Numbered from the stretch's first letter, positions 22,912-35,096 are shown. The stretch is 64,000 nucleotides of DNA from a virus (IMGVR_UViG_3300027733_000039:1-64000); one strand, 5' to 3'. Program-made: numbers and translations. Notes: generated from the letters alone by a model not told the origin.

Positions 22912-23241
22912 TTTCGTTCGTTGCTCAGTGGTCATGGATGTCATGCTCTTGCCACCCCATATTCCATACTGGATGTCGTTCTTGATGGCAAAACGAAGGC
23001 ACTGGATCTGCACAGGACAGCCTTTGCATATCTCTTTGGCTTGCTTCTGTGCTTCTATGACAGTCTTAGTCCTGCGTTCGTAAAGCCCAGCAAACCATTT
23101 GTCGGTGCCTTCTTTACGACAGAGAGCGAACTCTCTCCAGTCACCTACTTCAGGGAACTTCAACCCAAGAGTGTCTGAACGCCACCAAGAGTCAGGCAAG
23201 GTGTTAGTGGGGGATTGCTCCCCCACTGCTACCTCGGACAT
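22888..23241 (-). CDS. whiB: WhiB-family transcription factor
   Basis: WREFALC, AKEICKGCPVQIQCL, GIWGG. Confidence 0.9.
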   Translation of the reverse strand: MSEVAVGEQSPTNTLPDSWWRSDTLGLKFPEVGDWREFALCRKEGTDKWFAGLYERRTKTVIEAQKQAKEICKGCPVQIQCLRFAIKNDIQYGIWGGKSMTSMTTEQRTKLKDTFNK

Positions 23242-24281
23242 TATGCCATCACCACATCGTGGAGCGTACGGATGACTTGGCGATCAAACTCATCGCCCTT
23301 GCCATTGAGTGCATTGAGTGCATTGCGCTCAACACGGCTCTCCATCTTGCCTACATAGTGTTGCTGGTAGGTGTTGAATGCCTGCAACACACCGAGACCC
23401 GTTCCGATCCATGGTGCCACCCGTGGATCGTATTTGTACAGGTGTCGTACGGCTTCTTGCTTGTTCTGAGCACGGCTGACCGACTGTGGTCGTGCATCGG
23501 TGCCCACAACAGTTGGCATGAGGCGCTCTACAATGGCGTCCCACTCTGATGCAGTAACAACCATGCTGGACAGACGCTCAATCTCGGCGCTGAAGTCCTC
23601 TGCCATGGTGTGAATGATGCCGAGGGCGTCACGGATGCTCTGCACACGACCGTTGCTGTTCTTGCTGTGGCGTGTCTTGAACTGGCTACCGTCCTCGGAG
23701 AGCGCTCCAGCAAGCGTGTTATCACAAACTACCGCAGTGATGCACCGTTTGAAGGTGGTGGCAAGAGTGCCGTTGTGGCTCGTTGTTGCCAACAAGTGTG
23801 GACGGAAGTCAAAGCCAGCCGAAGTGCTGATGCTCTCAGGCATCTCAATGCTGACCCAAGCGACTCCACCATTGCGGAGCAAGCCCGCAGAACCGATCTG
23901 CAAGTTGCTGTCATCAATGACGTTGGACACGGTGTCCAGCAACCATTCATCGTATTGGTGGATGGCGTAGGTGTCCTTGAAGAGACCGAGAGTCTCGTAG
24001 GTGTCGTTGCGCACGATTGCCTTGCGATCATCTTGTGGGATGAACTTCATGGCACCTTCAGTGTCACTCTTCAAGTCAGGGACTTGCACGAACACTGGTG
24101 CTTCAATTGCCTTCCAATGGAAGAGACGGCGCCGTACATCGGACACAGGAATCGCTCCCGTGTAATGGTTCGGCTCGCCATGCTGGAGTTCCTTCTTTGA
24201 CCACCATGCCTCGCCACGCTTCTCTGTGAACCCCACGAGGATGTTCCCCGAGTTGAGGTATTCGTATGTTTCTTTGCTCAT
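23241..24281 (-). CDS. DUF932-family phage/plasmid protein
   Basis: SAGLLRNGG, LLATTSHNGT, VVCDNTL, RHSKN. Confidence 0.85.
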   Translation of the reverse strand: MSKETYEYLNSGNILVGFTEKRGEAWWSKKELQHGEPNHYTGAIPVSDVRRRLFHWKAIEAPVFVQVPDLKSDTEGAMKFIPQDDRKAIVRNDTYETLGLFKDTYAIHQYDEWLLDTVSNVIDDSNLQIGSAGLLRNGGVAWVSIEMPESISTSAGFDFRPHLLATTSHNGTLATTFKRCITAVVCDNTLAGALSEDGSQFKTRHSKNSNGRVQSIRDALGIIHTMAEDFSAEIERLSSMVVTASEWDAIVERLMPTVVGTDARPQSVSRAQNKQEAVRHLYKYDPRVAPWIGTGLGVLQAFNTYQQHYVGKMESRVERNALNALNGKGDEFDRQVIRTLHDVVMA

Positions 24282-24377: not shown

Positions 24378-24668
24378 TTATGGTTTACTTTTGAGGTTGA
24401 TGACCTGCCCAATTTGTAAGAGCGTCCCGTACTCATCTACGAGGTCATCCACGGCTGTGGAGATATTGCCCCAGCAATGCTGGACGGCAATCTGCCACAG
24501 GGTGTCACCCTGATAGACGATTACTGGCTCCGTGTCACACGAGTAGGTGTTCATCCTTTTGTCGTAGTCACGGTAAGCCCACACGGCGAAGCATGCCCCT
24601 GCTACTACGAGCAGAGTAATGAATCCTCGTGTGACTCTTTGATTAAGGGCTTCATAGTTGTTTCTCAT
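24378..24668 (-). CDS. Membrane-anchored LysM-domain protein
   Basis: TM helix, then VYQGDTLWQIA...LQIGQVINL; GGAG RBS. Confidence 0.8.
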   Translation of the reverse strand: MRNNYEALNQRVTRGFITLLVVAGACFAVWAYRDYDKRMNTYSCDTEPVIVYQGDTLWQIAVQHCWGNISTAVDDLVDEYGTLLQIGQVINLKSKP

Positions 24669-24919
24669 ATCGTGTTCTCCATCTCTCGGTGTCTGAGTGC
24701 TTCTTTGGCTTCTTCTTGTTGCCACAGGTAGTCGGCGTAGTCGGTACCCGATGCCACCAAGGCTCCACAAGTACATGTGGCTTCACCTTCGGTGTCATCG
24801 GGGTACATGGTTACGGTTTCATTCCATAAGCGACCGCATCCAGTTTCACAAAAGAATGCGAGTTCTTGATCTATCTCATCCCACGGTGTCCACCCACCTA
24901 ACGGTCTACGCCGACTCAT
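24665..24919 (-). CDS. Small Cys-containing hypothetical protein
   Basis: CETGCG...CTCG; coupled ORF. Confidence 0.6.
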   Translation of the reverse strand: MSRRRPLGGWTPWDEIDQELAFFCETGCGRLWNETVTMYPDDTEGEATCTCGALVASGTDYADYLWQQEEAKEALRHREMENTI

Positions 24920-25467
24920 GACAGAGCCTCGTAGAGTTCGTCAAACTCGGTGTCCAGCCATTCTTTGAATGCTTTTGGCTCAGGTGTGAGCACCGAGATG
25001 CCCATGCTGAACACATTGCTCGTGGGATCAGCCACGATGGCTACAGCCACTGGTGGTATGACATCACCAACAAGGACTGATTCAGCCCACTGGTTGAATG
25101 TTGCTTTACGATCAGCGATGGGATCACCCCAAGACCCAGTTGTCCAGCCGTTCATGACGTCTGTCCAACCTTCAATGGTGGTCTCATAGTGCCCACGCCA
25201 CGCATCACTGTGGATGTACTCACGATTGATTGTGATTTTAGATCGGTACATGTCATCGCCGTATTCATCCATGCGAATATGATCTCCGATGTAGTACTTG
25301 CGTACTACGCCGTCATCCACAAGTTGCACAGTTGAAGAATGATTCTGATCTGACTCGTAGCAACCCCAGCAGAGGTAATCCTCTTTGACGGTGCTCCATC
25401 CGAAGTCACCTTCGGCGTCCACGATCTCCTCGCATTCACAGCACTTATTCTCTGTGTCTTCGCTCAT
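24916..25467 (-). CDS. Hypothetical acidic protein with an N-terminal Zn finger
   Basis: CCEC...LCWGCYE; DAWRGHY. Confidence 0.7.
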   Translation of the reverse strand: MSEDTENKCCECEEIVDAEGDFGWSTVKEDYLCWGCYESDQNHSSTVQLVDDGVVRKYYIGDHIRMDEYGDDMYRSKITINREYIHSDAWRGHYETTIEGWTDVMNGWTTGSWGDPIADRKATFNQWAESVLVGDVIPPVAVAIVADPTSNVFSMGISVLTPEPKAFKEWLDTEFDELYEALS

Positions 25468-25811
25468 TATTCTGCTCCTTCTCCATAGGTGTCTACTTTG
25501 ATTGTGATGTCTTCATCAAACTCACATGGAATTGCTGTAATGAAGTAACCGATGCGGTTGACCATGTGCCAACCATCAACGATGTATGAGCCATCATTAC
25601 CATCTACCCATGTCCACACCTTGTGTGGCTGGACGCTGGCAACCTTCATGACGTAGTCGTACTCGGCTCCGTAGGTCTCGTACATGACTCCACCTTCATA
25701 TCCACTTTCATCTGATGTCCCCCACGATGCATCTTTGTCAAGATGATTCATGACGGGCTTGTACTTCTCTTCCCATTGCTCTACTGACATTGTTATTGCT
25801 GTCTTATTCAT
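25467..25811 (-). CDS. Hypothetical protein
   Basis: ETYG.E..YV, VWTWVDG, GWHMVNRIGYFIT; hairpin-SD leader. Confidence 0.75.
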   Translation of the reverse strand: MNKTAITMSVEQWEEKYKPVMNHLDKDASWGTSDESGYEGGVMYETYGAEYDYVMKVASVQPHKVWTWVDGNDGSYIVDGWHMVNRIGYFITAIPCEFDEDITIKVDTYGEGAE

Positions 25812-25813
25812 TT

Positions 25814-25933
25814 GAACCTCCTCAGATTCTTTAACTCAGGGGTGTGACACAGTGTCTTCACCCCGTGGATGCTCTACCCCGATCAGTGAGCAGAGCATCC
25901 ACGGGATGACACCAGCCGAGGCTGATGGCACCC
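25814..25933 (-). ncRNA. Cassette leader L1: type-A structured element (divergent) + SD hairpin
   Basis: Minus strand: P1 CATCAGC/GCTGGTG, long P2 CCCGTGGATGCTCTGCTC/GGGTAGAGCATCCACGGG, P3 GACA/TGTC; GAATCT-GAGG-AGGTTC. Confidence 0.7.
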
Positions 25934-25956
25934 TATTACTGGCTCGTACAAGCCTC

Positions 25957-26223
25957 TCAGGACTCGTTTAACGACTCTTTAATCCAATCTAAGTCAATGC
26001 TGTAGAGAAACACAAAGTGTCCCTCGGGTGCACGAAACTTAATGTAACCACCCGAGAAGTCATCTTCAAACTGCTCGTTGACATTGCCGATGTGCTTGAG
26101 TTTGGCTACTTCTTCAACCCCGTAGTACTCGTTGGTATTGACGGAGGGGATCAAGAGACCCGACTCCACCAAGTCCTTACGAACGGTGTAGTACCCGCTC
26201 CCTATTTGAACGAATCGGATCAT
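25957..26223 (-). CDS. Hypothetical protein
   Basis: GGAGG RBS; coupled ORF. Confidence 0.6.
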   Translation of the reverse strand: MIRFVQIGSGYYTVRKDLVESGLLIPSVNTNEYYGVEEVAKLKHIGNVNEQFEDDFSGGYIKFRAPEGHFVFLYSIDLDWIKESLNES

Positions 26224-26420
26224 TGCTCACCTCCGCATCGGCAGTTGCCATTGCATGGAGCGAACTGTGTTTGCCGAGAGTCCCAGCCATTCTCAGTGCA
26301 CTTGACACACCTCCACTCATCTGAAGGTAGGTCAGGTGCTGGTCTGAAGTCATGATTACACATGATCACCACTGTCGGCACCGATCCCTCGGTTTTGAAG
26401 TGTTCCATGACGCTCTTCAT
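26220..26420 (-). CDS. Small Cys-rich protein
   Basis: CNHDF...WRCVKC...CNGNCRC. Confidence 0.55.
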   Translation of the reverse strand: MKSVMEHFKTEGSVPTVVIMCNHDFRPAPDLPSDEWRCVKCTENGWDSRQTQFAPCNGNCRCGGEQ

Positions 26421-26629
26421 ACGAACACCTCTGCTTTAATGATCTTGGCGAAAGGCACTTCAATTTCACGGAACTCACCTTCGCCATGGTGCGGGCTGTC
26501 CTCGGTGAAGATCACCACTGATGTGTCAGTGATGTCCATGACATCTCCGATGTACACCCACTGCTCTTGTGGGTATATCTGCACAAGGAGTTCAACCTGA
26601 TCACCGATGTTGAGACTCAGTGTGTCCAT
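26417..26629 (-). CDS. Small beta-rich hypothetical protein
   Basis: GGAGG RBS; TGATG coupling. Confidence 0.6.
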   Translation of the reverse strand: MDTLSLNIGDQVELLVQIYPQEQWVYIGDVMDITDTSVVIFTEDSPHHGEGEFREIEVPFAKIIKAEVFV

Positions 26630-26916
26630 CAGTAGTCCTCCCCATCGTCAATGAATGACTCAAGATGATGCGAGTCCACGATTGCCCACGCTGGAGCCAG
26701 TGGTTGCCCACGCCACAACACACCTTCAGGGAGTGTGATGTTGACATCGGTATTTCCTGCACTCACATTCTCAATCGCCAGTACGCACACATCAAGCATG
26801 CTCAATGGTACGGGTGGGTAGTGATTGGATGTTAGGTGCCACGAGAGCGCCTGTCGTAGTTCAATGAGACCGTCCACGACAGCATCATTCATTCCTATTG
26901 CATTCATGCTTCCCAT
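26629..26916 (-). CDS. Hypothetical protein
   Basis: HLTSNHYPPVP...IVDSHHLESF; TAATG coupling. Confidence 0.7.
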   Translation of the reverse strand: MGSMNAIGMNDAVVDGLIELRQALSWHLTSNHYPPVPLSMLDVCVLAIENVSAGNTDVNITLPEGVLWRGQPLAPAWAIVDSHHLESFIDDGEDY

Positions 26917-27098
26917 TACTTTGCCTCCTCGGCTGTCCATGGTGCCTCAAAGCCCACGCTCTCTTTCCATTTGAGCGCAACTTCTAGTTCGTCCTCATCA
27001 AGGTGATAGAACTTGTCAAAGGCTTCTGCCTCGGATCTCGCTTCCACCTCGTATCCATAGTCAATGGTTTCATTGACTCTTACTATCCACTTGCTCAT
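26916..27098 (-). CDS. Small acidic protein (VEARSEAEA motif)
   Basis: Directly follows leader L2. Confidence 0.65.
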   Translation of the reverse strand: MSKWIVRVNETIDYGYEVEARSEAEAFDKFYHLDEDELEVALKWKESVGFEAPWTAEEAK

Positions 27099-27102
27099 AA
27101 CT

Positions 27103-27217
27103 GACCTCCTCAGGTCTTAGGGATTAATTAATGTATCGGGCATTGAGTGCCCTCACAACCCACAAACAATGTCTGTGGGCTGTGAGCGCACCATGGCGTG
27201 AGCCATGATGCACCCGA
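27103..27217 (-). ncRNA. Cassette leader L2: type-A element + SD hairpin
   Basis: P1 GCATCATGGC-TCAC-GCCATGGTGC; P2 CTCACAGCCCACAGAC/GTTTGTGGGTTGTGAG; P3 GGGCA/TGCCC; GACCT-GAGG-AGGTC. Confidence 0.8.
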
Positions 27218-27469
27218 TCAGGATGCGTCCTCCAGTTGGTATGAGACAACGATAAAGTCTTCACCGTTGTTGCCCATGAGTCCCTTCAGTTGCTCCTCGC
27301 CATCCTCGCAGTAGAAGAAGATCCGATCATCTCGCTGTCCGAGAGAATCAAAGTCCTCACTGATCTCGTTGTCGTATGAGCCGAACGAGAAGTACCGTTC
27401 GTCCTCCACGCCTGAGTCAAACCACTTGATGACTGCCCATGCACCCATAGGTGCTCCGATGTTGCTCAT
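27218..27469 (-). CDS. Hypothetical acidic protein
   Basis: GGAGG RBS; DDRIFFYC. Confidence 0.65.
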   Translation of the reverse strand: MSNIGAPMGAWAVIKWFDSGVEDERYFSFGSYDNEISEDFDSLGQRDDRIFFYCEDGEEQLKGLMGNNGEDFIVVSYQLEDAS

Positions 27470-27471
27470 TG

Positions 27472-27669
27472 CTATTCCTCCGTTTCTTTGTCAATTTCAA
27501 TCATTTCGTACAACACTTGCTCTAGCACTTCGTTGCCGAGTTCCACGATTCTCTCGTGTACATACCCTTCAACTTCTTCCATTGCTTCAATGGCTTCTTC
27601 TTTTGTCCAGTGTGGGTACATTGCTTTTGCATCTTCCCACGACCACTTCACGACAACTTCAGTTGCCAT
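27472..27669 (-). CDS. Small acidic protein
   Basis: AGGAGG RBS; TAATG coupling. Confidence 0.65.
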   Translation of the reverse strand: MATEVVVKWSWEDAKAMYPHWTKEEAIEAMEEVEGYVHERIVELGNEVLEQVLYEMIEIDKETEE

Positions 27670-27911
27670 TAGAAGCCTCCTTCTTCTTCATTAATTGATT
27701 GGTACAGGTTATTCCAAACCTCTTCGTTCACTGAGTCATACCCGCCTTCGGCGTCAAACTCTTGAATGGCTTTGAGCCATTCGTCTGAGTCTGCCGACAA
27801 TGGTTCTTCAGGTGTACCTGTAGAGAATAAGTCTGATTCCCACCAAGAGATAGCGATCTCTTCGTCAGGATTGATCTCACTCAACAGTTCAATTGCTTTG
27901 CTTACCTTCAT
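27669..27911 (-). CDS. Hypothetical protein, paralog of 28087..28446
   Basis: MKVS..I..L...PDEE.AI.W...W.KAI. Confidence 0.65.
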   Translation of the reverse strand: MKVSKAIELLSEINPDEEIAISWWESDLFSTGTPEEPLSADSDEWLKAIQEFDAEGGYDSVNEEVWNNLYQSINEEEGGF

Positions 27912-28087
27912 TGCTGTTCTCCTTTGTAGGTTGCTTCTAATGTTCTTTCATCCCATCCAATGATGGATGCTTCGCTTGCTGTTGTGATGTAATCCATTGC
28001 ACACACCATGTCATTGTTATCGCTGTATGTTTCTATTGCTAGGACGAGTGTGACCTCAACCAGTTTGGTTGTTGCTAATGCTTTCAT
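27908..28087 (-). CDS. Small hypothetical protein (59 aa, not in the ORF track)
   Basis: MKALATTK...GEQQ*; AGGAGG RBS; coupled at both ends. Confidence 0.55.
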   Translation of the reverse strand: MKALATTKLVEVTLVLAIETYSDNNDMVCAMDYITTASEASIIGWDERTLEATYKGEQQ

Positions 28088-28446
28088 TACTTGCCCTCCT
28101 TTGGGCTTTTGATCTCTGACACGATGTCAGACATCCACTTGATGTTGTATGCGTTGATCTTCTCAATGGTGCTGAGAACATCGGGCACGACTTCGCTTAC
28201 TGGCTCACTGTGTTCCTTCAAGCATTCAAGGATGTCATAGAGCGTCTCGTTGGCGTATTCATCCAACAGTTGAAGCCAAGACATCTGATTGATTGCTTCG
28301 CTCCAGTGGTCTGCCGATGGGGCTTCTTGATACCCAGTCTCTTCGTCAGGAACAGTGAAGTCATTGCGATCAAGCCACCTGATGAGCAATTCATCATCGG
28401 GCTGGTACACAGCATTCAACACATTGATTATTGCACTTACTTTCAT
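28087..28446 (-). CDS. Hypothetical protein, paralog of 27669..27911
   Basis: MKVSAII.VL...PDDELLIRW...WSEAI; follows leader L3. Confidence 0.7.
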   Translation of the reverse strand: MKVSAIINVLNAVYQPDDELLIRWLDRNDFTVPDEETGYQEAPSADHWSEAINQMSWLQLLDEYANETLYDILECLKEHSEPVSEVVPDVLSTIEKINAYNIKWMSDIVSEIKSPKEGK

Positions 28447-28449
28447 GGC

Positions 28450-28553
28450 GCCTCCTCAGGCATTACTTAATTGAACATCGGATGATGTTCTGACAATACA
28501 TTATCGGTGTGACAATGTACTGTCAGAACACCACGGACTTGCGCCCGTGATGC
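28450..28553 (-). ncRNA. Cassette leader L3: type-A element + SD hairpin
   Basis: P1 GCATCACGGGC-GCAA-GTCCGTGGTGT; P2 TCTGACAGTACATTGTC/GATAATGTATTGTCAGA; P3 GAACATC/GATGTTC; GCCT-GAGG-AGGC. Confidence 0.8.
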
Positions 28554-28556
28554 ACT

Positions 28557-28638
28557 GATGGTGTACCTCCATGAGGACAGAGGCACCCCGATAGTCGCTA
28601 CTGGCGCCGACCATGATGGCGCCGAGCGCCAATGATCA
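28557..28638 (-). ncRNA. Reduced type-B element plus a relic SD hairpin with no ORF
   Basis: TGATCAT-TGGCGC...GCGCCA-GTAG-CGA(CTA)TCG, then GTCCTCATGGAGGTACACCATC. Confidence 0.55.
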
Positions 28639-30165
28639 ACCGCCGTTACCGACAATCCCATCAATGAGTGACTGGGTGATGCTTCCACCCTCGGCACCCA
28701 TGTCCTCACCGTATCCCGTTAGTACTGCGGATACCGCTTCGTGCTTTGCATTCAACAATGCCCACATACGATCATCAATCGTAGGTGTCGCATCGCTGTT
28801 GCTGTCTACAGCCAAGAGCCACCACGCCACGACAGAGTTGACCTGTCCAATGCGGTGTGCTCTATCTTCCGCCTGTGTGGCGGACGATGGTGTCCACGGC
28901 ACCTCAGCCATCACGACATGGGACGCACTCGTAAGAGTGAGACCCACACCAGCGCTGTCGTAGTTGCCGATGAACACCTTGGCGTCACCTGTCATGAAGT
29001 CATCTACTGACTTCTGCTTCTCAGCATCACTCATGCCACCGACTACCTTGACCACTCCGTGCTGTTGTAATGCATCGGAGAGACCACTGATGACATCCCT
29101 GTGATGACCGAACACGATGACCTTCTCGCCTTGAGCGACAAGTTCTTCTACATGCTCAACCACATAGGGGATCTTTGCGATACCGAGTTGGTGACGTAGT
29201 GCATTGAGCCGTGTGATGACCTCTGCTTTGGATGCCTTCTGCCATGCTTCAACACCGCCATTGGCGATGACAAAGTCACGGAAGTCATTCTCAGCATGTC
29301 GGTATGCCTTGAGGTCAGTCTCGCTGATCTCTACAGCAACCTGCGCACGGCGCTTGGCTGGGAGTTCCGTCAACACATCTGTTTTGTTACGCCTCACATA
29401 GCAGGTGCCACGCAATTTGTCATTCAATTCAGTTGTGTTAGTCGCTCCGTTGTACACATAACCCCAACCATTGTGGATGGGTTCGCAGTAACGAAAGAGG
29501 AACGCTGACTTGCCACCGAACACTCGGTCAAGTCTGCCAATCAATGACAGAGGTGACACCAGTTCGTTGGGTCTGTTCACGATGATCGTGCCCGAGAGCA
29601 ACAGCACATACCCTTCAGTCGGAATTGACTTTGCGATGTATGCCACGCCCTTGGTGCGTCCACTCTTAGCGCTCTTCAAGCGATGTGCTTCATCAACGAT
29701 GAGGCAACCAAACTTACCCGTGAACTTCATTGCCCATGCATTGATGATTGAGTCACCAACGATCACGACATCAGTTTGAGGTAGAGCGCCAACCTTGTTG
29801 CCCTTCACGATGGCTACAGTGAGCCATGGTGCGAACATCTTCAGCGAGCGCTCCCAGTTTGTGCGAAGAGATGCAGGTACAACGATGAGGACTTTGTGCC
29901 CTTCGTTGTGCGCATTCACTGCGACTGCGATTGCTTGTGGAGTCTTACCGAGACCCATCTCGTCACCCAAAATACAACGCTTCTGCTTGATCGCATAAGC
30001 GACACCAGCACGCTGGAATGGATAGAGAGGCTCGGCGAGGTCTACAAGGGTCTCGCTGTCATGTGCACTGCTCAGAGCATGTAATGAAGCGTCAGGCAAA
30101 ATTGCTGGCGCCACACGATCAAGCCCCGAGAGTAACGCACTCAGTTCTTCTAATTGTGTATTCAT
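28636..30165 (-). CDS. SNF2-family helicase (SMARCAL1/HARP-like)
   Basis: LYPFQRAGV, GDEMGLGKT, VDEAH, LSGT, GVGLTLT, QAEDRAHRIGQ. Confidence 0.92.
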   Translation of the reverse strand: MNTQLEELSALLSGLDRVAPAILPDASLHALSSAHDSETLVDLAEPLYPFQRAGVAYAIKQKRCILGDEMGLGKTPQAIAVAVNAHNEGHKVLIVVPASLRTNWERSLKMFAPWLTVAIVKGNKVGALPQTDVVIVGDSIINAWAMKFTGKFGCLIVDEAHRLKSAKSGRTKGVAYIAKSIPTEGYVLLLSGTIIVNRPNELVSPLSLIGRLDRVFGGKSAFLFRYCEPIHNGWGYVYNGATNTTELNDKLRGTCYVRRNKTDVLTELPAKRRAQVAVEISETDLKAYRHAENDFRDFVIANGGVEAWQKASKAEVITRLNALRHQLGIAKIPYVVEHVEELVAQGEKVIVFGHHRDVISGLSDALQQHGVVKVVGGMSDAEKQKSVDDFMTGDAKVFIGNYDSAGVGLTLTSASHVVMAEVPWTPSSATQAEDRAHRIGQVNSVVAWWLLAVDSNSDATPTIDDRMWALLNAKHEAVSAVLTGYGEDMGAEGGSITQSLIDGIVGNGG

Positions 30166-30170
30166 GGTTA

Positions 30171-30262
30171 TACCTCCTCAGGTAATTGTTATGGACTTGC
30201 GTCCTCACAGCACACGAGCATACCCGTGTACTGTGAGCACGCCACACCGTGAGGTGTGACGC
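30171..30262 (-). ncRNA. Cassette leader L4: type-A element + SD hairpin
   Basis: P1 GCGTCACACC-TCAC-GGTGTGGCGT; P2 CTCACAGTACACGGG/CTCGTGTGCTGTGAG; P3 GGAC-GCAA-GTCC; TACCT-GAGG-AGGTA. Confidence 0.8.
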
Positions 30263-30269
30263 CCTCGGG

Positions 30270-30995
30270 CTAGAAGCCCAACCTGCTTGCGCAGTCATTG
30301 CCGATGCCACGCTTGCGTGTCACCTCATCAGTGAGATGCCGACCGCACGCACCACACTGTCCAATCTCTTGACCGAACAGCGCCTGTGCTTGCTTACGAC
30401 CCTCGTCCGTGAGACCTGCAATGCGCTTGATCGCATGCAGAGCACGCTCACCCGACAACTTTGCATCCTTGTGACCACCAACGACCATGTAAATGCTTCG
30501 CTGACCCTTCATGGAAGGATTATGGAAGCCCTTGTTGGTCTTGATGGCGTAGAACACGAGGTCATTGGTGCCCGATGATGTCATCGCATAGAAGCCATCA
30601 GCAATGGTGCCGAAGGATTCATTGGTCAACTTGTCGGGGACGATAGCGCTCTCCGCAGAGCAGTCACCTTGCTTGTGGTAGGTAGCCCACTTGCCTGCAT
30701 TGAGCAATGCGTGACCAGTACCTGTCCGCACTGGATGCCCACAGAGGGCACACGGGTTGGCGTACTTGTTTACGATGATGCGCTCTGCTTTGGGCAAGTG
30801 ATCTGTGCCCACACGCTTGACTTCAATCTTGCGAATGGCGTCAATGGCGAATGATGCTGACTTGGCAGTGAGTTCATTGAGTGTGTTATCGGTGATGTAC
30901 TGATCCACTTGCTCTTCGTTGAGACCAAGTGTTGAAGCACGCTCCAATAACAGCGTCTTAATGAACGCCTGTTGCTTTGGTGTTATTGCACCCAT
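30270..30995 (-). CDS. DUF6011-like Zn-finger protein
   Basis: TPKQQAFI N-terminus, NKY..PC..CG, C-terminal CGACGRHLTDEVTRKRGIGNDC. Confidence 0.75.
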   Translation of the reverse strand: MGAITPKQQAFIKTLLLERASTLGLNEEQVDQYITDNTLNELTAKSASFAIDAIRKIEVKRVGTDHLPKAERIIVNKYANPCALCGHPVRTGTGHALLNAGKWATYHKQGDCSAESAIVPDKLTNESFGTIADGFYAMTSSGTNDLVFYAIKTNKGFHNPSMKGQRSIYMVVGGHKDAKLSGERALHAIKRIAGLTDEGRKQAQALFGQEIGQCGACGRHLTDEVTRKRGIGNDCASRLGF

Positions 30996-30999
30996 GGTG

Positions 31000-31112
31000 A
31001 GAACCTCCTCAGATTCTGTTTTGTATGTGTAGGTGGACTTGCGTCCTCGTGATGCATCAGTTGGGGGAACCGATGTACCACGAGCACGCCACGACTCACG
31101 CCGTGACTGCCC
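31000..31112 (-). ncRNA. Cassette leader L5: type-A element + SD hairpin
   Basis: P1 GTCACGGC-GTGA-GTCGTGGC; P2 CTCGTGGTACATCGGTT/AACTGATGCATCACGAG; P3 GGAC-GCAA-GTCC; AGAATCT-GAGG-AGGTTCT. Confidence 0.8.
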
Positions 31113-31124
31113 ATTGCTGATTAC

Positions 31125-31379
31125 TCACGCATTGGCGAGTTGGGAAGTGATGTTTGCAATTGCTTGCCACAGCACTGTCTCCATGTCAACGGTGTCACTG
31201 ACGAACAGCGTGATCGTTGACTCCAACTTTGCGTAACCGAATGACTCTTTGTCCTGCTCCCACTGGGGACGGCTGAACGCCAAATCTTCGTACTCAATCA
31301 CGAGATCAATCGTCTTGAGACATGGGTTATCGGACTTCTCAATCCGTAACCCAGTTACTTTGTGAATACTTGCATCCAT
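31125..31379 (-). CDS. Hypothetical protein
   Basis: Single-gene cassette after L6. Confidence 0.7.
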   Translation of the reverse strand: MDASIHKVTGLRIEKSDNPCLKTIDLVIEYEDLAFSRPQWEQDKESFGYAKLESTITLFVSDTVDMETVLWQAIANITSQLANA

Positions 31380-31382
31380 GGT

Positions 31383-31483
31383 GCCTCCTCAGGCTTTGTT
31401 AGTTGGGCACATTGTATGCCCTCACAATGCACGAGCCAACGCCCATGCACTGTGAGGACACCACGAGTTCACACTCGTGATGC
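31383..31483 (-). ncRNA. Cassette leader L6: type-A element + SD hairpin
   Basis: P1 GCATCACGAGT-GTGA-ACTCGTGGTGT (the loop contains the upstream stop codon); P2 CTCACAGTGCATGGGC/GCTCGTGCATTGTGAG; P3 GGGCAT/GTGCCC; GCCT-GAGG-AGGC. Confidence 0.8.
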
Positions 31484-31945
31484 ATCGGTCAGCCTCCACT
31501 GACCTGATTGAAGTTGGAAACGCTCGTACAAGGTGTGCAGTAGTGATGCATGCTGTATTGAGATGTGATCTCGCACGATGTTCACGAACGCATGACGCCA
31601 GCACTCATTGTGCCCACGCTCGCCACATACAATGTGAGCAAGTTCGTGAGCCAGTGTGAGCACTGTCGTACTGGAGCCACTGATGCCGATGATACTTCGC
31701 TTCTCATCAGCGACACCTGCCCACTTGGTGGAGCGTATGCGATCAACCACGGGCGTATTCCAGCCCTCGGTCTCACACACACGATCCAGCCAAGCGTATG
31801 CATCCTTGGTGGCGATCACTTGCGATGGCAAGTAACGAGACACCACATGCTCTATTGCGTACACCGTGGCTTGATGCTCGGGCATCTTGGGAGAGCGCTT
31901 CTCAACGCTCCCCCGTACCTCGTCAATGTAGGCGTGAATGCTCAT
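31469..31945 (-). CDS. HExxH metallohydrolase (TIGR04338/SprT-like)
   Basis: VYAIE, LAHELAH...GH...W. Confidence 0.75.
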   Translation of the reverse strand: MSIHAYIDEVRGSVEKRSPKMPEHQATVYAIEHVVSRYLPSQVIATKDAYAWLDRVCETEGWNTPVVDRIRSTKWAGVADEKRSIIGISGSSTTVLTLAHELAHIVCGERGHNECWRHAFVNIVRDHISIQHASLLHTLYERFQLQSGQWRLTDASRV

Positions 31946-32631
31946 CGTCCGAGCGCTCCAGCGACACCGTTACCGATGCCACCACTGGAGAACGAAAGAC
32001 CAGCACTACGACCAGCCGAGTACCCACTGCCCGATGAATATCGGGAGTAGCCAGCAGACTTGAGCGATACTTTCGCACGCATCTCAGTGTCTGCACGCTT
32101 GAACTTGTCAGCGAGTACCAAACCAGTGCCAACACCTTGCTCTGCGATCACTTCGTTCTTGGACTTGGTCAACACTTCACGCACACCCGCCGAGAATCCC
32201 AGCCACCACGCACTGCGGAATGACCGATCACCCTTGGGGATCACACGAGAAGCGAGCAAGTCTGCCGATGCGAACAGCGTCCTGACAGCGAAGATGTCAC
32301 CTGCGGTGCCATACACCACCAGCGACAACACCTTCTTACCATCTTTCCACGATGTGGAGCGATAGCAAGCGACTGAGTTGGCTTTGGCGATCGCTCCAGC
32401 GAGTGCTAGACGGCGAAGTTGCCATTTGCCACCAACTTCAATGATGTTGGTCACGATGTTCTCATTGCGATCTTGAGCCTTGGCGAATGCGGACTCTTCA
32501 AGACCGTGCTTCATCATCAACTTCTGTGCCATGGCGAGAGCCGTTTCGGCTTCCGCTTGTGGCGTGTTGGGATGATTGGCACGATCAAGGATTGCCTGCA
32601 CCTTGTCATAGATTGCTTCTGATTTATTCAT
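31942..32631 (-). CDS. DUF2786-domain protein
   Basis: KVQAILDRA..PNTPQAEAETALAMAQKLMMKHGL; R.AWWLGF; SGYSAG. Confidence 0.85.
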   Translation of the reverse strand: MNKSEAIYDKVQAILDRANHPNTPQAEAETALAMAQKLMMKHGLEESAFAKAQDRNENIVTNIIEVGGKWQLRRLALAGAIAKANSVACYRSTSWKDGKKVLSLVVYGTAGDIFAVRTLFASADLLASRVIPKGDRSFRSAWWLGFSAGVREVLTKSKNEVIAEQGVGTGLVLADKFKRADTEMRAKVSLKSAGYSRYSSGSGYSAGRSAGLSFSSGGIGNGVAGALGR

Positions 32632-32635
32632 GGTT

Positions 32636-32736
32636 ATACCTCCTCAGGTATCTAGATTGGGCAAATGCCCACACTGATCACCGACTCACGCCGATGAACA
32701 CTGTGGGCACCACGAGATCGCTCCCGTGATGCTCCC
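32636..32736 (-). ncRNA. Cassette leader L7: type-A element + SD hairpin
   Basis: P1 GCATCACGGGA-GCGA-TCTCGTGGTGC; P2 CCACAGTGTTCATCGGC-GTGA-GTCGGTGATCAGTGTGG; P3 GGGCA/TGCCC; ATACCT-GAGG-AGGTAT. Confidence 0.8.
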
Positions 32737-32752
32737 GACTACCAGTCGCTGT

Positions 32753-33070
32753 TTACTCGCTGTCCTCCTCGTCCTCTTCCGAGTATCCCTCGGGCATTGA
32801 GATCGTAGGGAAGTACACGATGACCGAGTCACGACCCATGCTGTCCGAGCGCACACATCGGAGCAAGATCGTCCCGAGAGTTTGTGCGTTCGCATCAGCC
32901 AATTCAAGACCGAGAATCAAGAATGTTGAAGCCTCGTCCTCGGTCACAATGCCGAAGCACTGGTCTCCGTACATCGCACGACCCGAGTACTGCATGACAG
33001 TGCCCGCTTCGTGTTGATCCAGTATCTCGGTGATCAATTCAAGATCATCTACTGTTAGTTGATATGCCAT
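32753..33070 (-). CDS. Hypothetical protein
   Basis: YSGRAMYGDQCFG...DSMG...IVYFP; single-gene cassette. Confidence 0.75.
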   Translation of the reverse strand: MAYQLTVDDLELITEILDQHEAGTVMQYSGRAMYGDQCFGIVTEDEASTFLILGLELADANAQTLGTILLRCVRSDSMGRDSVIVYFPTISMPEGYSEEDEEDSE

Positions 33071-33073
33071 GGT

Positions 33074-33180
33074 GACCTCCTCAGGTCTGTTACTTGATTG
33101 GGCGAAATGCCCTCACGATGCACCGATCACTTGACCGATGCACCGTGAGGACATCACGAGGTTGCCCCCGTGATGCTCCC
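33074..33180 (-). ncRNA. Cassette leader L8: type-A element + SD hairpin
   Basis: P1 GCATCACGGGG-GCAA-CCTCGTGATGT; P2 CTCACGGTGCATCGGTC/GATCGGTGCATCGTGAG; P3 GGGC/GCCC; GACCT-GAGG-AGGTC. Confidence 0.8.
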
Positions 33181-33182
33181 GA

Positions 33183-33401
33183 TCACGCACTGTGATCAAC
33201 TGAATGGTCGTACCCCTCGGGGTACCACGCATCACCGCAGGTCGCACAGGTGTAGCCATCGGGGTATCCGATGTCCCACGCTTCAGCGAACTCCAGTGCC
33301 TTACCTTCTCGTAAGGCTTCTGCTTGGTAGTAGTCGGCGCACACAAGGCACACCAATTCTCTATCGTCCATCACTTGACCAATTACGACTATGTCCCTCA
33401 T
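33183..33401 (-). CDS. Small Zn-finger protein
   Basis: CLVC...CATCG; ATGA coupling. Confidence 0.6.
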   Translation of the reverse strand: MRDIVVIGQVMDDRELVCLVCADYYQAEALREGKALEFAEAWDIGYPDGYTCATCGDAWYPEGYDHSVDHSA

Positions 33402-33913
33402 GATGCACTCACCTTGAACTTGGCAACGATCGCCTCAAGTAGAGGCTCACCCTGTCGGGCAGTTGCCATGTCCACACCGAGCAGTGCCGAGACTTGCTCT
33501 ACGAGCGAGTCGTAGTGCGCATCTCGGTCACGCTCTTCGGTGAACGATTCCATCATGCGAATCTGCTCCTCTTCAAGGAACTCATTGAGCGACATCGTGG
33601 TGTAAACACCAGCGATGTCCTGCGGACGCAGTCGGTAGTTGAGACCACTGTTCACCTTCATTGATGGAAGGCGCTCAGGAATGATGTCACCGTTGTACTG
33701 CAATCCTTGTTGACGCCCACGATCTCTTGTGATCGTGCGACCTTTCAACTTGGTGACTTTGCGGGTCTTCGTAGATGAAGTCCTCCACGAGGTGCCCACC
33801 TCCACTTGCTCTTCAAGCACTTCGTCAATGATGAAGTACCCATTGAACTTGGCGCTCATGAAGACCGCTTCGGGACTGACACTCAGAATTGCTCTGATTT
33901 CATTTGCTTTCAT
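33398..33913 (-). CDS. Hypothetical protein
   Basis: Follows leader L9. Confidence 0.7.
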   Translation of the reverse strand: MKANEIRAILSVSPEAVFMSAKFNGYFIIDEVLEEQVEVGTSWRTSSTKTRKVTKLKGRTITRDRGRQQGLQYNGDIIPERLPSMKVNSGLNYRLRPQDIAGVYTTMSLNEFLEEEQIRMMESFTEERDRDAHYDSLVEQVSALLGVDMATARQGEPLLEAIVAKFKVSAS

Positions 33914-33917
33914 GGTT

Positions 33918-34011
33918 GACCTCCTCAGGTCTTATCGTCACGACACGGGATGTGTCGCTAGTCCCCAGTGCTCATTGAAGAGCCACGCCCTAGGCGCTGG
34001 GGGAATGATCA
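33918..34011 (-). ncRNA. Cassette leader L9: type-B (tRNA-elbow-like) element + SD hairpin
   Basis: TGATCAT-TCCCCCAG-CGCC(TAG)GGCG-TG-GCTC(TTCAAT)GAGC-A-CTGGGGA-CTAG-CGACAC(ATCCC)GTGTCG; GACCT-GAGG-AGGTC. Confidence 0.8.
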
Positions 34012-34527
34012 GCCGTATGTGACCTCACCGAGCAGGATGAACTGCACGATGGCATCAGCCACGATGGCGTCACAATCGCACTCAAACTCGTCAATGGCAT
34101 TCTCACCGAACAGGTAGCACCCTGCTAGAGCGCTCACTCGCTTGACTGGTAGTTGACCGTAGTCAGGCACGCTGTCCTGATTGAACTCACCCGTGCCGAT
34201 CTTCTCAATGAAGTCAGCAATGATGGACTCACTGATCACGAGTGGCGTGCCGAAGCGGTAGAACCCGCCCCAACCGTTGAAGCCATCGTCATCGGTCAAC
34301 TTCGCCAATTCGGCTTCGTCTTCCACCAATTCACACGCTTCCATGTCGTACAGAGTGACCGATGCGAAGTGTTCGTTGCCGTCCAATTCGCTTTCGCCCA
34401 GTTCCGTGCCCCATGTGTAGGTGCTGTTGGCAACCGCCCACGATGCGATCCCGTAGGAACCGCCCTCGTACGCAGTGCTCAGGATGCTTGCCCCGAGATT
34501 GAGTAGTTGTTGTCTTGTTGCTTTCAT
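34009..34527 (-). CDS. Hypothetical acidic protein
   Basis: TAYEGG...W; DAIVADAIVQ..LLGEVTYG C-terminus. Confidence 0.75.
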   Translation of the reverse strand: MKATRQQLLNLGASILSTAYEGGSYGIASWAVANSTYTWGTELGESELDGNEHFASVTLYDMEACELVEDEAELAKLTDDDGFNGWGGFYRFGTPLVISESIIADFIEKIGTGEFNQDSVPDYGQLPVKRVSALAGCYLFGENAIDEFECDCDAIVADAIVQFILLGEVTYG

Positions 34528-34530
34528 GGT

Positions 34531-34621
34531 GTGCCTCCTCAGGCATATTCACGACACTTGCGTGTCGCTAGTCCCCAGTACCGATTGAACGGTCACGCCT
34601 GAAGCGCTGGGGGATTGATCA
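34531..34621 (-). ncRNA. Cassette leader L10: type-B element + SD hairpin
   Basis: TGATCAA-TCCCCCAG-CGCT(TCA)GGCG-TG-ACCG(TTCAAT)CGGT-A-CTGGGGA-CTAG-CGACAC(GCAA)GTGTCG; ATGCCT-GAGG-AGGCAC. Confidence 0.8.
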
Positions 34622-34626
34622 CGCAC

Positions 34627-34863
34627 TCAGCCGATCGTGAGCAACGCTGACAGGTACGGCAACTTGACGCCCCTGTTGGCAAGTTCGCTTGCGCAGATCT
34701 CTGCGATTGCATCCTTGATGATCTCTGAGCGGGTGTTGAGACCGTCCGATTTCTTCAGAATGTGCAGGAGTTCTGCATCGCTAAGTGCCCGTACATCGGC
34801 GCTGTAGTGAGCGATGTATTGCTCTCGCTTGCGAATGTTTGCGGGTGTGTTCTTGTATGTCAT
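34627..34863 (-). CDS. Hypothetical protein, first gene of the leftward block
   Basis: Follows leader L11. Confidence 0.65.
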   Translation of the reverse strand: MTYKNTPANIRKREQYIAHYSADVRALSDAELLHILKKSDGLNTRSEIIKDAIAEICASELANRGVKLPYLSALLTIG

Positions 34864-34868
34864 GGTGT

Positions 34869-34993
34869 GTCCTCCTCAGGACTGCACTGGCAGTGAGCCA
34901 GTGGAGCGTGGTGCGCTCAATCAGGACTGGAGCGGGGGAGAACCTCCAGCCCTCATTGAGCGCCACGAGCAAGCCGAAGCAAGCCCGTGACGC
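34869..34993 (-). ncRNA. Cassette leader L11: type-A element + SD hairpin
   Basis: P1 GCGTCACGGGC/GCTCGTGGCGC; P2 CTCAATGAGGGCTGGAG/CTCCAGTCCTGATTGAG; P3 GAGCG/CGCTC; extra CACTGGC/GCCAGTG stem; GTCCT-GAGG-AGGAC. Confidence 0.75.
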
Positions 34994-35072
34994 TGAGGAA
35001 TTTATTGAACCATGTTTTGATTCTTCAGTTGTCAGGAGCGCATGAGCGCCAAGCCAAGCAATCGGCAGAACG

Positions 35073-35096
35073 ACAAAGAGCGACCCGAAGGTCGCT
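35073..35096 (-). terminator. UUCG hairpin with a weak U-tract in the leader of the leftward block
   Basis: AGCGACC-TTCG-GGTCGCT-CTTTGT. Confidence 0.45.

Follow-up and report, generated by a model that had tools for sequence, protein, structure and literature searches.

Candidate structured RNA families of two types in the intercistronic gaps of an actinobacterial myophage gene array

In the genome of a ~97-kb myophage, all gaps between the gene cassettes of a minus-strand operon (35.0 to 25.8 kb) are built in the same way: in 11 of 11 gaps, a stop codon is followed by a structured element, an A-rich linker, a hairpin containing the SD sequence, and AUG. This grammar is far beyond chance, and the elements are under selection as RNA structure. 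The unit of the array is an SD hairpin with its ORFs and a 3' structured element, not an element with the ORFs that follow it. The elements are of two architectures, type A and type B, both of which appear from covariance-model and Rfam searches to be new RNA families. We give an even chance to the explanation that the elements combine intercistronic processing or stability punctuation with a context-insulating, regulatable ribosome-binding site, and, as part of the same reading, that the block is a single cotranscribed polycistronic, non-structural operon of a lytic actinobacterial phage.

The window, that is, the whole stretch of DNA analysed, comprises 64,000 nt of a phage genome of 97,131 bp, in which the array is confined to the minus-strand block. 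The host is placed in Actinobacteria because the phage carries a WhiB gene, and the setting is probably that of freshwater actinobacteria; the phage itself is uncultured, and all functions discussed here are read from its sequence.

Layout of the array and distribution of its elements

The first-pass annotation of this DNA had described one grammar for every minus-strand gap and cassettes of one to five translationally coupled ORFs whose internal members lack the element. Both descriptions hold, and the ORFs within cassettes are coupled via ATGA or TAATG overlaps. Apart from the three ORFs named below, the cassette ORFs match no known family.

24378–34863, minus strand: coding part of the array, 11 cassettes with 1, 1, 2, 1, 2, 1, 1, 1, 5, 5 and at least 4 ORFs
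31942–32631, minus strand: DUF2786/DUF7168 ORF
30270–30995, minus strand: DUF6011 ORF
28636–30165, minus strand: SNF2 helicase ORF
34904–34996, minus strand: element 1, A-like (H1, long H2, H3); type A model 28.7 bits, z −6.9
34546–34614, minus strand: element 2, type B (three-way-junction core 34571–34614 plus P4 hairpin); type B model 66.1 bits, and fold
33932–34004, minus strand: element 3, type B (core 33961–34004 plus P4 hairpin); type B model 64.0 bits, z −3.1
33098–33179, minus strand: element 4, type A (H1, H2, H3); 76.8 bits, z −7.6
32656–32735, minus strand: element 5, type A; 72.3 bits, z −5.4
31407–31486, minus strand: element 6, type A; 80.2 bits, z −6.5
31032–31112, minus strand: element 7, type A, H3 being GGAC-GCAA-GUCC; 65.6 bits, z −4.1
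30190–30265, minus strand: element 8, type A, preceding the cassette of the SNF2 helicase; 71.8 bits, z −6.0
28476–28635, minus strand: element 9, type A (28476–28556) preceded by extra hairpins (28557–28635); 74.5 bits, z −7.5
27138–27214, minus strand: element 10, type A; 75.9 bits, z −7.7
25849–25934, minus strand: element 11, A-like, its outer stem closing a multi-branch junction; 21.9 bits, z −6.7
25814–34884, minus strand: eleven SD hairpins, NNYCU-GAGG-AGGNN, 4–8 nt before ATG and after a 6–22-nt A-rich linker
25817, 27105, 28451, 30173, 31004, 31384, 32639, 33076, 33920, 34534 and 34871 (plus coordinates), minus strand: starts of the CTGAGGAGG 9-mer

Type A consists of three abutting hairpins and type B of a three-way junction whose UUCAAU loop is invariant. 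The covariance models recognise two type B and seven canonical type A elements (65–80 bits); of the nine type A elements originally counted, the other two are only divergent, A-like forms (28.7 and 21.9 bits). Relative to shuffled sequences, the z-scores range from −4.1 to −7.7 for the A and A-like elements and are −2.4 and −3.1 for type B. An extra type B element had been placed at 28589–28638, but the type B model gives no match there with filters off and E ≤ 10; this segment has TGATCATT and AGTAGCGAC in common with type B, but neither its junction nor its UUCAAU loop. Element 1 sits in the 5' leader of the operon, for which a conserved long-range helix is predicted, with an upstream UUCCUCAG and CAUGGU pairing with the first SD and AUG; this helix appears in the predicted folds of five of the seven distinct relative leaders folded (L009, L042, L033, L052 and L037), and not as such in those of L020 or of the window's own leader.

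The SD hairpin was found in 69 of 69 distinct leaders of the clade, across which it covaries, its flanking pairs 1, 2 and 3 being formed in 100%, 100% and 93% of the leaders with several pair types. At about −5.6 kcal/mol, it may have little effect on translation. A makes up 52% and G 7% of the linkers, compared with 26% A for the whole array. The invariance of CTGAGGAGG goes well past the needs of 16S pairing; the 97,131-bp genome contains 11 minus-strand copies, all in the array, and a single copy outside it (94111, plus strand), which is not at a gene start. Neither covariance model matches elsewhere in the 97-kb genome, and these models and the 9-mer scan together confirm the earlier impression that the leader grammar is limited to the array.

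The elements were found only in a clade of ~97-kb WhiB-encoding myophages, in which they are conserved across lineages with a helicase protein identity of only 79–80%, and were absent from the 185,579 prokaryote genomes searched. No described family in Rfam 15 fits either type: the search, which took in ribozymes, tRNA-like RNAs, Freshwater motifs and put/antitermination RNAs, returned nothing that reached the gathering score anywhere in the window. In the region of the array, the best match was PyrR at element 11 (35.7 bits, below its threshold of 54 bits; E = 0.06), the other matches had E > 0.4, and ribozyme families gave none even at E ≤ 10. ARAGORN recognised neither a tRNA nor a tmRNA anywhere in the window; type B was rejected on this basis as a tRNA-like gene with a cloverleaf, and it is similar only in its T-loop-like UUCAAU and its acceptor/T-arm-like stacking. 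A sigma-70-type promoter at each junction was likewise rejected, since promoter-like sites at the junctions are not enriched (8 versus 11.6 expected in shuffles); the only such site inside an element is located in element 6, in the loop of H3.

Selection on RNA structure and inheritance of the elements

The suggestion of a function at the RNA level is supported by covariation, strand asymmetry and RNA-type tetraloops. In type A, 96.6% of cells are paired and 17 of 26 pairs have changed on both sides; the observed covariation score was attained in none of 500 shuffles and the count of pairs changed on both sides in one of 500, and slid controls were 29–49% paired. In type B (44 distinct sequences), 99.7% of cells are paired and 8 of 13 pairs are compensatory; in both types, therefore, pairing has been kept while the sequence diverged, as had been claimed. 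The coding strand is the better folder in 39 of 39 type A and 28 of 28 type B cores because of G-U pairs, in agreement with the earlier remark that G-T wobbles favour this strand only; G-U pairs account for 14% of type A pairs and are conserved at some positions. For type A, the folding energy is −49.0 kcal/mol in the sense versus −33.5 kcal/mol in the antisense orientation, and, at the same sites, the model scores 55–82 bits on the sense strand versus 14–33 bits on the antisense strand. The commonest loops are, as first noticed, GNRA tetraloops (GCAA 34, GUGA 8, GCGA 3, GAAA 2), and the invariant unpaired nucleotides in the elements are UUCAAU, GUG and AC.

H2 of type A, a helix of 16–18 bp, can extend to at least 21 bp with one frequent mismatch by using the H1 lower stem and the H3 5' arm. 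The extension pairs covary (29–82 and 30–81 are 100% paired, the latter as UA in 24 and CG in 15 sequences), the competing H1 lower-stem pairs covary too, and the two folds are near iso-energetic, with a mean difference of 0.9 kcal/mol and a difference within 2 kcal/mol in 27 of 39 sequences. This covariation of competing helices rests largely on two sequence subfamilies, and the apparent switch might have arisen as a by-product of common descent.

Comparison of relatives revealed cassette gain, loss and reordering. Homology breaks cluster at the invariant CUGAGGAGG, with 50–57% of them falling between −150 and +30 of the SD motif versus 24% expected. The median identity of an element is 0.79 where, of the two flanking genes, only the upstream one is shared, versus 0.56 where only the downstream one is shared and a background of 0.44. 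The element is thus co-inherited with the upstream gene, indicating that it closes its cassette and does not, as the first-pass annotation had it, open the next. The idea that the elements serve as recombination joints stands insofar as the breaks lie at the junctions, but they lie on the invariant SD motif and not inside the folds; the elements need not promote exchange, because phages in any case often have mosaic joints where genes meet. Types A and B are interchangeable in that they fill the same slot.

Proposed mechanism and rival explanations

According to the explanation that we put forward, RNA signals would divide the operon into autonomous expression cassettes, each ordered as an SD hairpin, one to five coupled ORFs, a 3' structured element and an A-rich linker, and the 3' element would act as intercistronic punctuation within the transcript. 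The extended H2 of type A would be a likely target of a double-strand-specific endonuclease such as host RNase III. Once cut, the released strands could re-pair; the upstream message would then be capped at its 3' end by a long H1, and the downstream message at its 5' end by H3. Judged against a T7-type site, which is an irregular hairpin of about two turns, type A offers the H2 duplex (16–18 bp, to at least 21 bp) and type B offers no such duplex; therefore, one enzyme cannot account for both types. Type B fills the slot of type A with a tRNA-elbow-like three-way junction bearing the T-loop-like UUCAAU, after which comes the P4 hairpin; an enzyme that recognises structure (of the RNase P, Z or E class) may process it, or it may be a mere decay barrier. 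As the phage genome encodes no RNase III and yielded no detectable RegB-like protein in a search run without a positive control, any processing would most likely be performed by host enzymes. The single-stranded A-rich linker and the short SD hairpin would provide every cassette with the same self-contained initiation region, whatever lies upstream, and this uniformity would make the cassettes exchangeable and offer one common regulatory handle on the whole set. Cotranscription, cleavage, its timing and enzymes, regulation, and the separately stabilised units and early host-takeover genes of the first-pass annotation are inferences. Element 6 counts against this explanation: the H1 5' arm lies within the upstream ORF and the stop codon (31469–31471) is in the H1 loop, so terminating ribosomes must melt H1.

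Uncleaved elements could instead be passive insulators or regulator-binding sites, with folds that bar Rho, stop 3'-exonucleases and prevent upstream sequences from mispairing with the next SD, and with the SD hairpin as the operator of a trans-acting repressor, either a protein or an RNA. A conserved minus-strand RNA is predicted outside the window, at 94.03–94.15 kb; its internal loop ACCUCCUCAGG is an exact complement of the leader motif, its apical loop is rich in CCUCC, and its exposed loops presumably resemble the 3' tail of 16S rRNA. This candidate anti-SD RNA, the excess invariance of CTGAGGAGG within a covarying hairpin, and the occurrence of two unrelated architectures in one slot, as expected of a generic stable fold, all fit such a reading; generic stability nevertheless leaves the invariant unpaired nucleotides, the conserved G-U positions and the three hairpins with competing helices unexplained, and no RNA-binding protein was identified, such that we consider it unlikely. 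Terminators or attenuators, read through with a phage or host antitermination factor for graded or timed expression, would account for G+C-rich hairpins directly after stop codons, and U-tract-poor terminators have been proposed for Actinobacteria. Moreover, a stem-loop between genes 90 and 91 of the cluster K phage Adephagia has been suggested to be a terminator (PMC11373665). However, the 3' flank is A-rich and not U-rich, the minus-strand scan found no terminator-like site at any element and no U-tract after the elements, a three-way junction is unlike a terminator, and eleven terminators in series would silence distal genes, e.g., the helicase and WhiB, which makes this reading improbable.

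That the folds act in single-stranded DNA as attC-like sites driving cassette exchange seems very improbable. Promoterless, same-orientation cassettes that each end in a structured, sequence-variable element, and that are shuffled among relatives with breaks clustered at the junctions, are what such sites would produce; yet neither a tyrosine nor a serine recombinase (PF00589, PF00239) occurs anywhere in the 97-kb genome by a search whose positive controls do respond, the breaks centre on the SD motif, the coding strand pairs better whereas attC recombines as the bottom strand, the UNCG/GNRA loops and T-loop-like motif indicate RNA, and phages usually form mosaic joints at gene borders without a special site. 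Protein-free cutting of the polycistronic RNA by new self-cleaving ribozymes of one or both types would suit the location between phage genes, where several known small ribozymes occur, the compact junctions with few invariant nucleotides, and the adjacent hairpin and SD, an arrangement resembling the synthetic insulator design RiboJ. The lack of any match to ribozyme families, the very few conserved unpaired nucleotides available for an active site and the filling of one role by two unrelated folds render this hardly plausible. Selfish or neutral REP/MITE-like repeats without a role for the phage are barely credible: the elements are indeed repeated, palindromic and restricted to intergenic DNA, but there is exactly one per intercistronic gap in a single orientation, with compensatory evolution, strand-specific G-U pairs, retention across diverged lineages and no copies elsewhere in the genome or in prokaryote genomes.

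We also speculate, while regarding it as quite unlikely, that two new RNA classes punctuate the transcript and that the CUGAGGAGG hairpin is both the crossover point and the address for the 94.03–94.15 kb RNA, which would switch off the eleven cassettes together.

Relation to known systems and significance

The first-pass annotation recognised no known analogue with this architecture, which is fair, but the cluster K SAS/ESAS system is closer than it implied; together with the T7 RNase III sites, it appears to be the closest analogue. The sites of T7/T3 (and SP82/SPO1) are likewise structured hairpins between cistrons of a polycistronic early or non-structural phage transcript, use a host enzyme and yield separately stabilised messages with hairpin ends, as proposed here; they differ in that no sequence or model similarity exists, three abutting hairpins or a three-way junction precede a fixed linker and SD hairpin here, the host is an actinobacterium and cleavage is only inferred. 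In cluster K, the SAS is a 13-bp GGGATAGGAGCCC (≤2 mismatches) located 3–9 bp before the start codon, and the ESAS are imperfect inverted repeats of 17 bp in which departures fail to maintain RNA pairing (PMC3203893); the ESAS are now read as promoter-containing DNA sites (PMC11373665). Shared with these actinophages are an invariant, asymmetric SD-containing motif a few nucleotides before ATG with symmetric outer bases (GGG...CCC in SAS, YCU...AGG here), one orientation, restriction to non-structural genes of varied families, an inverted-repeat element that often precedes the motif, and a single extra reverse-oriented copy not at a gene start. Identity with either was rejected: the leader motif is CTGAGGAGG, 4–8 nt before ATG, rather than GGGATAGGAGCCC, though alike in position and logic, and unlike ESAS the elements show compensatory departures, strand-specific pairing and no promoter grammar or enrichment of promoter-like sites, and belong to the upstream gene.

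Integrons resemble the array in having promoterless cassettes that share one orientation and lie downstream of a single control region, each ending in a structure-conserved, sequence-variable, strand-specific fold, with content and order varying between relatives; here, however, there is no integrase, no attC core grammar was seen at the junctions, the coding strand is favoured and the exchange point is the SD motif. The PeSL (promoter-early stem-loop) cassettes of T4-type phages are also repeated regulatory modules on either side of small early genes, at places that match modular shuffling, but they combine an early promoter with a terminator-like stem-loop, whereas neither promoter signal nor U-tract is present here. 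T4 RegB and RegA control early mRNAs via SD regions (PMC1702504, PMC3014915), a regulon likewise set by a common SD-region feature and allowing collective shut-off; for the present array, an RNA instead of a nuclease is the candidate effector.

If our reading holds, the array would contribute two structured RNA families that are new, well supported and set in a clear genomic grammar, together with a natural counterpart of synthetic-biology insulators (processing element, hairpin and ribosome-binding site), and would show that a block of accessory genes can stay freely exchangeable with uniform expression. It would also offer a concrete hypothesis for the cluster K SAS, which has been unexplained since 2011 (still in 2024–2025), in cultivable mycobacteriophages; if the 94.03–94.15 kb RNA does address the hairpins, its anti-motif hairpin-loop logic would explain the SAS system as well.

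The minus-strand operon and its leaders

The virus record, rated complete at 97,131 bp and represented in the window by its first 64 kb, carries nearly all of its genes on the plus strand; the exception is a minus-strand block that extends from ~35.3 to 22.9 kb. With genes for a family A DNA polymerase, an SPP1-type portal, a tail sheath and a baseplate J protein, the phage is a myophage. Among the cassette proteins, an SNF2 helicase and the DUF6011 and DUF2786/DUF7168 proteins could be identified; the remaining ones gave no match or matched PHROGs of unknown function only. The block ends with a gene pair:

22888-24281, minus strand: WhiB-family regulator (117 aa) and DUF932 protein (346 aa), 3' end of the block

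The 96-nt gap before this pair holds no element and no copy of the leader 9-mer CTGAGGAGG. The WhiB family occurs in Actinobacteria and in phages of Actinobacteria.

Reading and folding of the minus strand gave the same order in all 11 intergenic gaps of the array, namely stop codon, strongly folded element, A-rich linker, short GAGG hairpin and ATG, in agreement with the single grammar that the first-pass annotation had claimed for every gap. Against dinucleotide shuffles, the fold z-scores are -4.1 to -7.7 for the type A and A-like elements and -2.4 and -3.1 for the type B elements, and the linkers contain 52% A and 7% G vs 26% A for the array. The cassettes comprise 1-5 ORFs each, joined via ATGA or TAATG overlaps, and none of the 11 elements lies inside a cassette, as had also been described. 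All 11 minus-strand copies of CTGAGGAGG are in array leaders; its single further copy in the genome, at 94111 on the plus strand, does not precede a gene, and the type A model finds no match elsewhere in the genome, which bears out the view that the grammar is confined to the array.

Among 69 distinct leaders, the pairs flanking the Shine-Dalgarno (SD) loop (CU/AG and the next) are formed in 100%, 100% and 93%, respectively, through AU, GC, UA and GU alternatives. The hairpin, usually 5 bp around the GAGG loop, has a mean folding energy of -5.6 kcal/mol and is followed by the ATG 4-8 nt downstream. The hairpin is thus real but weak, and because of this weakness its earlier description as "SD-occluding" may be an overstatement; its job could equally be to shield the SD from long-range mispairing.

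In the leader of the first cassette (34861-35012, minus strand), the upstream stretches UUCCUCAG and CAUGGU could base-pair with the first SD and with the ACCAUG of the start. The resulting long-range helix, enclosing the A-like element, is predicted in five of seven distinct relative leaders; in the window's own fold, GCUCCUG pairs with CCUGAGGAG instead, and the fold of one relative's locus (L020) gives the local SD hairpin instead. Another relative (L034) has a variant SD (CTTGAGGGAG) in its first leader. Just upstream of the first leader, at 35079-35096 (minus strand), lies a hairpin that resembles a terminator (UUCG loop, U-rich tail) and may separate the array from transcription arriving from 35.3 kb. 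On the antisense strand, at 33074-33087 (plus) and at the other junctions, the linker complement, rich in T, comes after the reverse complement of the SD hairpin, and such weak terminator-like sites at each junction could stop antisense transcription.

Structure and covariation of the type A and type B elements

Type A consists of three abutting hairpins: H1 (~10 bp, its loop usually GNRA or UNCG), H2 (16-18 bp) and H3 (4-7 bp, for example GGAC-GCAA-GUCC). In 39 distinct sequences, 96.6% of the cells of H1 and H2 pair and 17 of the 26 pairs are compensatory; at several positions most of the sequences have a G-U pair. Slid controls are 29-49% paired; no shuffle reaches the observed covariation score, and one in 500 reaches the observed number of pairs changed on both sides. 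Nine elements had been assigned to this type; seven are canonical copies, at 65-80 bits with the type A model, and two at the ends of the array are weak, A-like matches:

34904-34996: A-like element at one end of the array, 28.7 bits with the type A model
25849-25934: A-like element at the other end, 21.9 bits with the type A model

Two alternative pairings are open to the 4-5 nt that follow the H1 core. Pairing back with the 5' flank gives a long H1, and pairing forward with the 5' arm of H3 gives an H2 of 21 bp or more in which H3 is dissolved; the two folds differ by 0.9 kcal/mol on average. The pairs of either fold are conserved and covary, pair 30-81 as UA (24 sequences) or CG (15) and pair 7-30 as AU (24) or GC (15). 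This variation falls into two main subfamilies, so that shared descent could produce the pattern without a switch.

In element 6, the 5' arm of H1 (31469-31487, minus strand) is coding sequence of the upstream 158-aa ORF, whose stop codon lies in the H1 loop; judging from this arrangement, which is also found in the relative L022, a terminating ribosome must open H1. In the same element (31411-31439, minus strand), the H3 loop contains TACAAT (TATAAT in a relative, L009:8390-8410) with TTGGCT 17 nt upstream. This is the sole promoter-like match within an element, and the other elements do not share it.

Type B is a 43-nt three-way junction followed by a separate hairpin. P1 comprises CCC and three variable pairs, and P2 has 4 bp and a 3-nt loop. 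P2 is followed by the invariant linker nucleotides U and G, with the conserved GUG taking in its closing G. P3, whose 3-4 pairs are all fully variable, ends in an invariant UUCAAU loop; then come one or two purines, the 3' strand of P1, AC and the hairpin P4, which exists in several interchangeable versions. Among 44 distinct type B sequences, pairing reaches 99.7% of cells, with changes on both sides at 8 of 13 pairs; slid controls are only 25-47% paired. The claim that pairing is kept while primary sequence diverges therefore holds for both types. The type B covariance model matches array sites only, at 48-69 bits with none weaker, and gives two matches in the window:

34571-34614: type B core
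33961-34004: type B core

An additional type B element had been proposed at 28589-28638. With filters off, nothing besides the two cores scores above 8 bits in 24.0-35.4 kb, and the proposed member is therefore rejected. The region 28557-28638 (minus strand), after the helicase stop, holds extra hairpins ahead of a type A element, and relatives retain a hairpin here. Its first part has TGATCATT and AGTAGCGAC in common with type B leaders and no junction, and, from these sequence matches, may be a decayed type B.

We take the UUCAA of type B to fit the T-loop consensus and its P1/P3 stack to resemble a tRNA acceptor/T-arm; ARAGORN called no tRNA in the window. A reading of UUCAAU as a -10 hexamer (TTCAAT also occurs upstream of leader 1) was rejected, because of the T at position 2 and because a promoter would leave the covarying helices around it unexplained.

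Relatives, cassette exchange and a candidate RNA at 94.1 kb

A helicase search recovered 14 related IMG/VR loci with 79-97% protein identity, and in each of the 14 the helicase strand carries an array of this kind. Scans with the type B motif and with type B plus SD added further viral and metagenome contigs, among them roughly 45 metagenome contigs, and several were 95-98 kb. In 185,579 prokaryote genomes, the type B-plus-SD pattern gave 13 isolated matches scattered over unrelated taxa, roughly as many as chance predicts, and all 13 fail the type B model. The system therefore belongs to a single clade of uncultured phages. No match to the array was obtained by megablast among 50,697 phage records, and the helicase protein finds relatives in cultured phages at 35% identity or less only, with the best-covered top rows mostly from Arthrobacter phages and also from Bacteroides and Thermus phages. 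Rfam searches of the whole window at gathering score and of the region at E<=10 returned nothing usable, so that neither search yields an already described family.

Gene order among the relatives differs widely and many families come and go. The cassette gain, loss and reordering that the first-pass annotation had anticipated are thus seen; family 2, for instance, precedes the DUF2786 pair in the window and follows it in two relatives (L022 and L052). Across junctions of 16 loci, the median identity of the element is 0.79 where only the upstream gene is shared vs 0.56 where only the downstream gene is (background, 0.44); its first 40 nt, middle and last 25 nt all show this linkage. Because element identity follows the upstream gene, the cassette is to be read as SD hairpin, ORFs, and 3' element and linker; contrary to what had been assumed, the element does not open the cassette. 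Breakpoints had been expected at the elements. They do cluster at junctions, with a concentration near the SD motif: 36% of BLAST homology blocks end within 0-30 nt after the motif start and 21% start in the 30 nt before it, vs 4% expected in each case. Phage mosaic joints are generally located at gene borders, and the clustering therefore does not show that the SD motif promotes exchange. The genome encodes neither a tyrosine integrase nor a resolvase.

Outside the window, conservation and folding point to a further structured RNA:

94,030-94,150 of the genome (L068:10030-10150, its 94-kb region), minus strand: candidate structured RNA

The region is conserved in four lineages at 68-75% identity, with UCCUGAGGAGGU (plus strand) invariant. 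The minus-strand fold has a 17-bp outer stem and an inner hairpin, with six compensatory pairs among four sequences, and several G-U pairs would be A-C on the plus strand. An internal loop contains ACCUCCUCAGG, which is exactly complementary to the leader motif, and CUUUCCCUCCUUUCU forms the apical loop; both loops, we presume, resemble the 3' tail of actinobacterial 16S rRNA. No Rfam family matches it. A TANNNT -10-like hexamer lies just upstream in each lineage. Since a gene starts ~20 nt downstream in three lineages, the RNA may belong to a 5' leader instead of being a free small RNA, and as a candidate trans partner of the leaders it is a lead, not a result. On the plus strand, the gene starting at 94241 has CCTGAGGAGCG before its ATG (about 94,225-94,243), a near copy of the leader motif with no hairpin.

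Level of action and relation to described systems

Sense RNA folds better than antisense in 39 of 39 type A sequences (mean -49.0 vs -33.5 kcal/mol) and in 28 of 28 type B cores, G-U pairs make up 14% of type A pairs, and the type A model scores the same sites at 55-82 bits in sense and 14-33 bits in antisense. This strand asymmetry, together with the GNRA/UNCG loops, places function in the transcript, in line with the RNA-level role first proposed; single-stranded DNA of the coding strand is formally possible as its place. N4-type DNA hairpin promoters were rejected: the better-pairing strand is the coding one, and Pfam scans, covering the array proteins and about ten large ORFs rather than every ORF, revealed no phage RNA polymerase. 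A scan of the junctions found no promoter or terminator grammar, so that promoters and terminators for each cassette were likewise rejected and a single transcript is the simplest reading.

We give roughly even odds to the elements being processing/stability punctuation combined with an insulated ribosome-binding site. Stable, strand-specific, covarying intercistronic folds and single-stranded A-rich spacers are in keeping with known processing/stability elements, T7 RNase III sites among them. The long H2 form would be the only plausible RNase III substrate; once H2 was cleaved, long H1 would cap the upstream 3' end and H3 the downstream 5' end, a re-pairing that would fit the competing helices. 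Type B would need a different enzyme or would act as a barrier only. RNase III is absent from the phage genome, and a RegB-like search of the genome, run without a working positive control, gave no match. Insulation or regulator binding with no cleavage is improbable, and attenuation, DNA-level recombination, ribozymes and selfish repeats are more improbable still. The array has one aspect in common with each of four systems: T7-type RNase III sites, T4 RegB/RegA control, integron attC cassettes and PeSL modules. It lacks defining features of the last two, and probably of the first two as well.

The nearest described grammar is that of the SAS/ESAS of cluster K mycobacteriophages. The SAS is an invariant SD-containing motif with symmetric ends, a few nucleotides before the ATG of non-structural genes only; it is often preceded by an inverted repeat and has a single reverse-oriented copy away from gene starts (PMC3203893). 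Unlike in the array elements, RNA pairing is not preserved in the ESAS repeats, which are nowadays interpreted as sites that bear a promoter. In Mycobacterium phage Anaya, genes 96 and 97 are separated by 385 bp devoid of genes, in which the reverse SAS is located:

L139:34850-34905 (about 59,850-59,905 of Anaya), plus strand: predicted reverse SAS hairpin

The reverse SAS is predicted to form the apical loop (CCUCCUAUCC) of this hairpin, which lies on the same strand as the SAS genes. Three other Anayavirus phages (Enkosi, MeaningOfLife and Urkel) retain the hairpin; it is lost in Yuna and altered in Shandong1, and its covariation is weak.

The pair of RNA motifs in the array is real, statistically strong and previously undescribed. 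It forms a regular punctuation system, whose function we infer, in an operon of shuffling cassettes, and the array is related to known kinds of intercistronic and start-associated signals.
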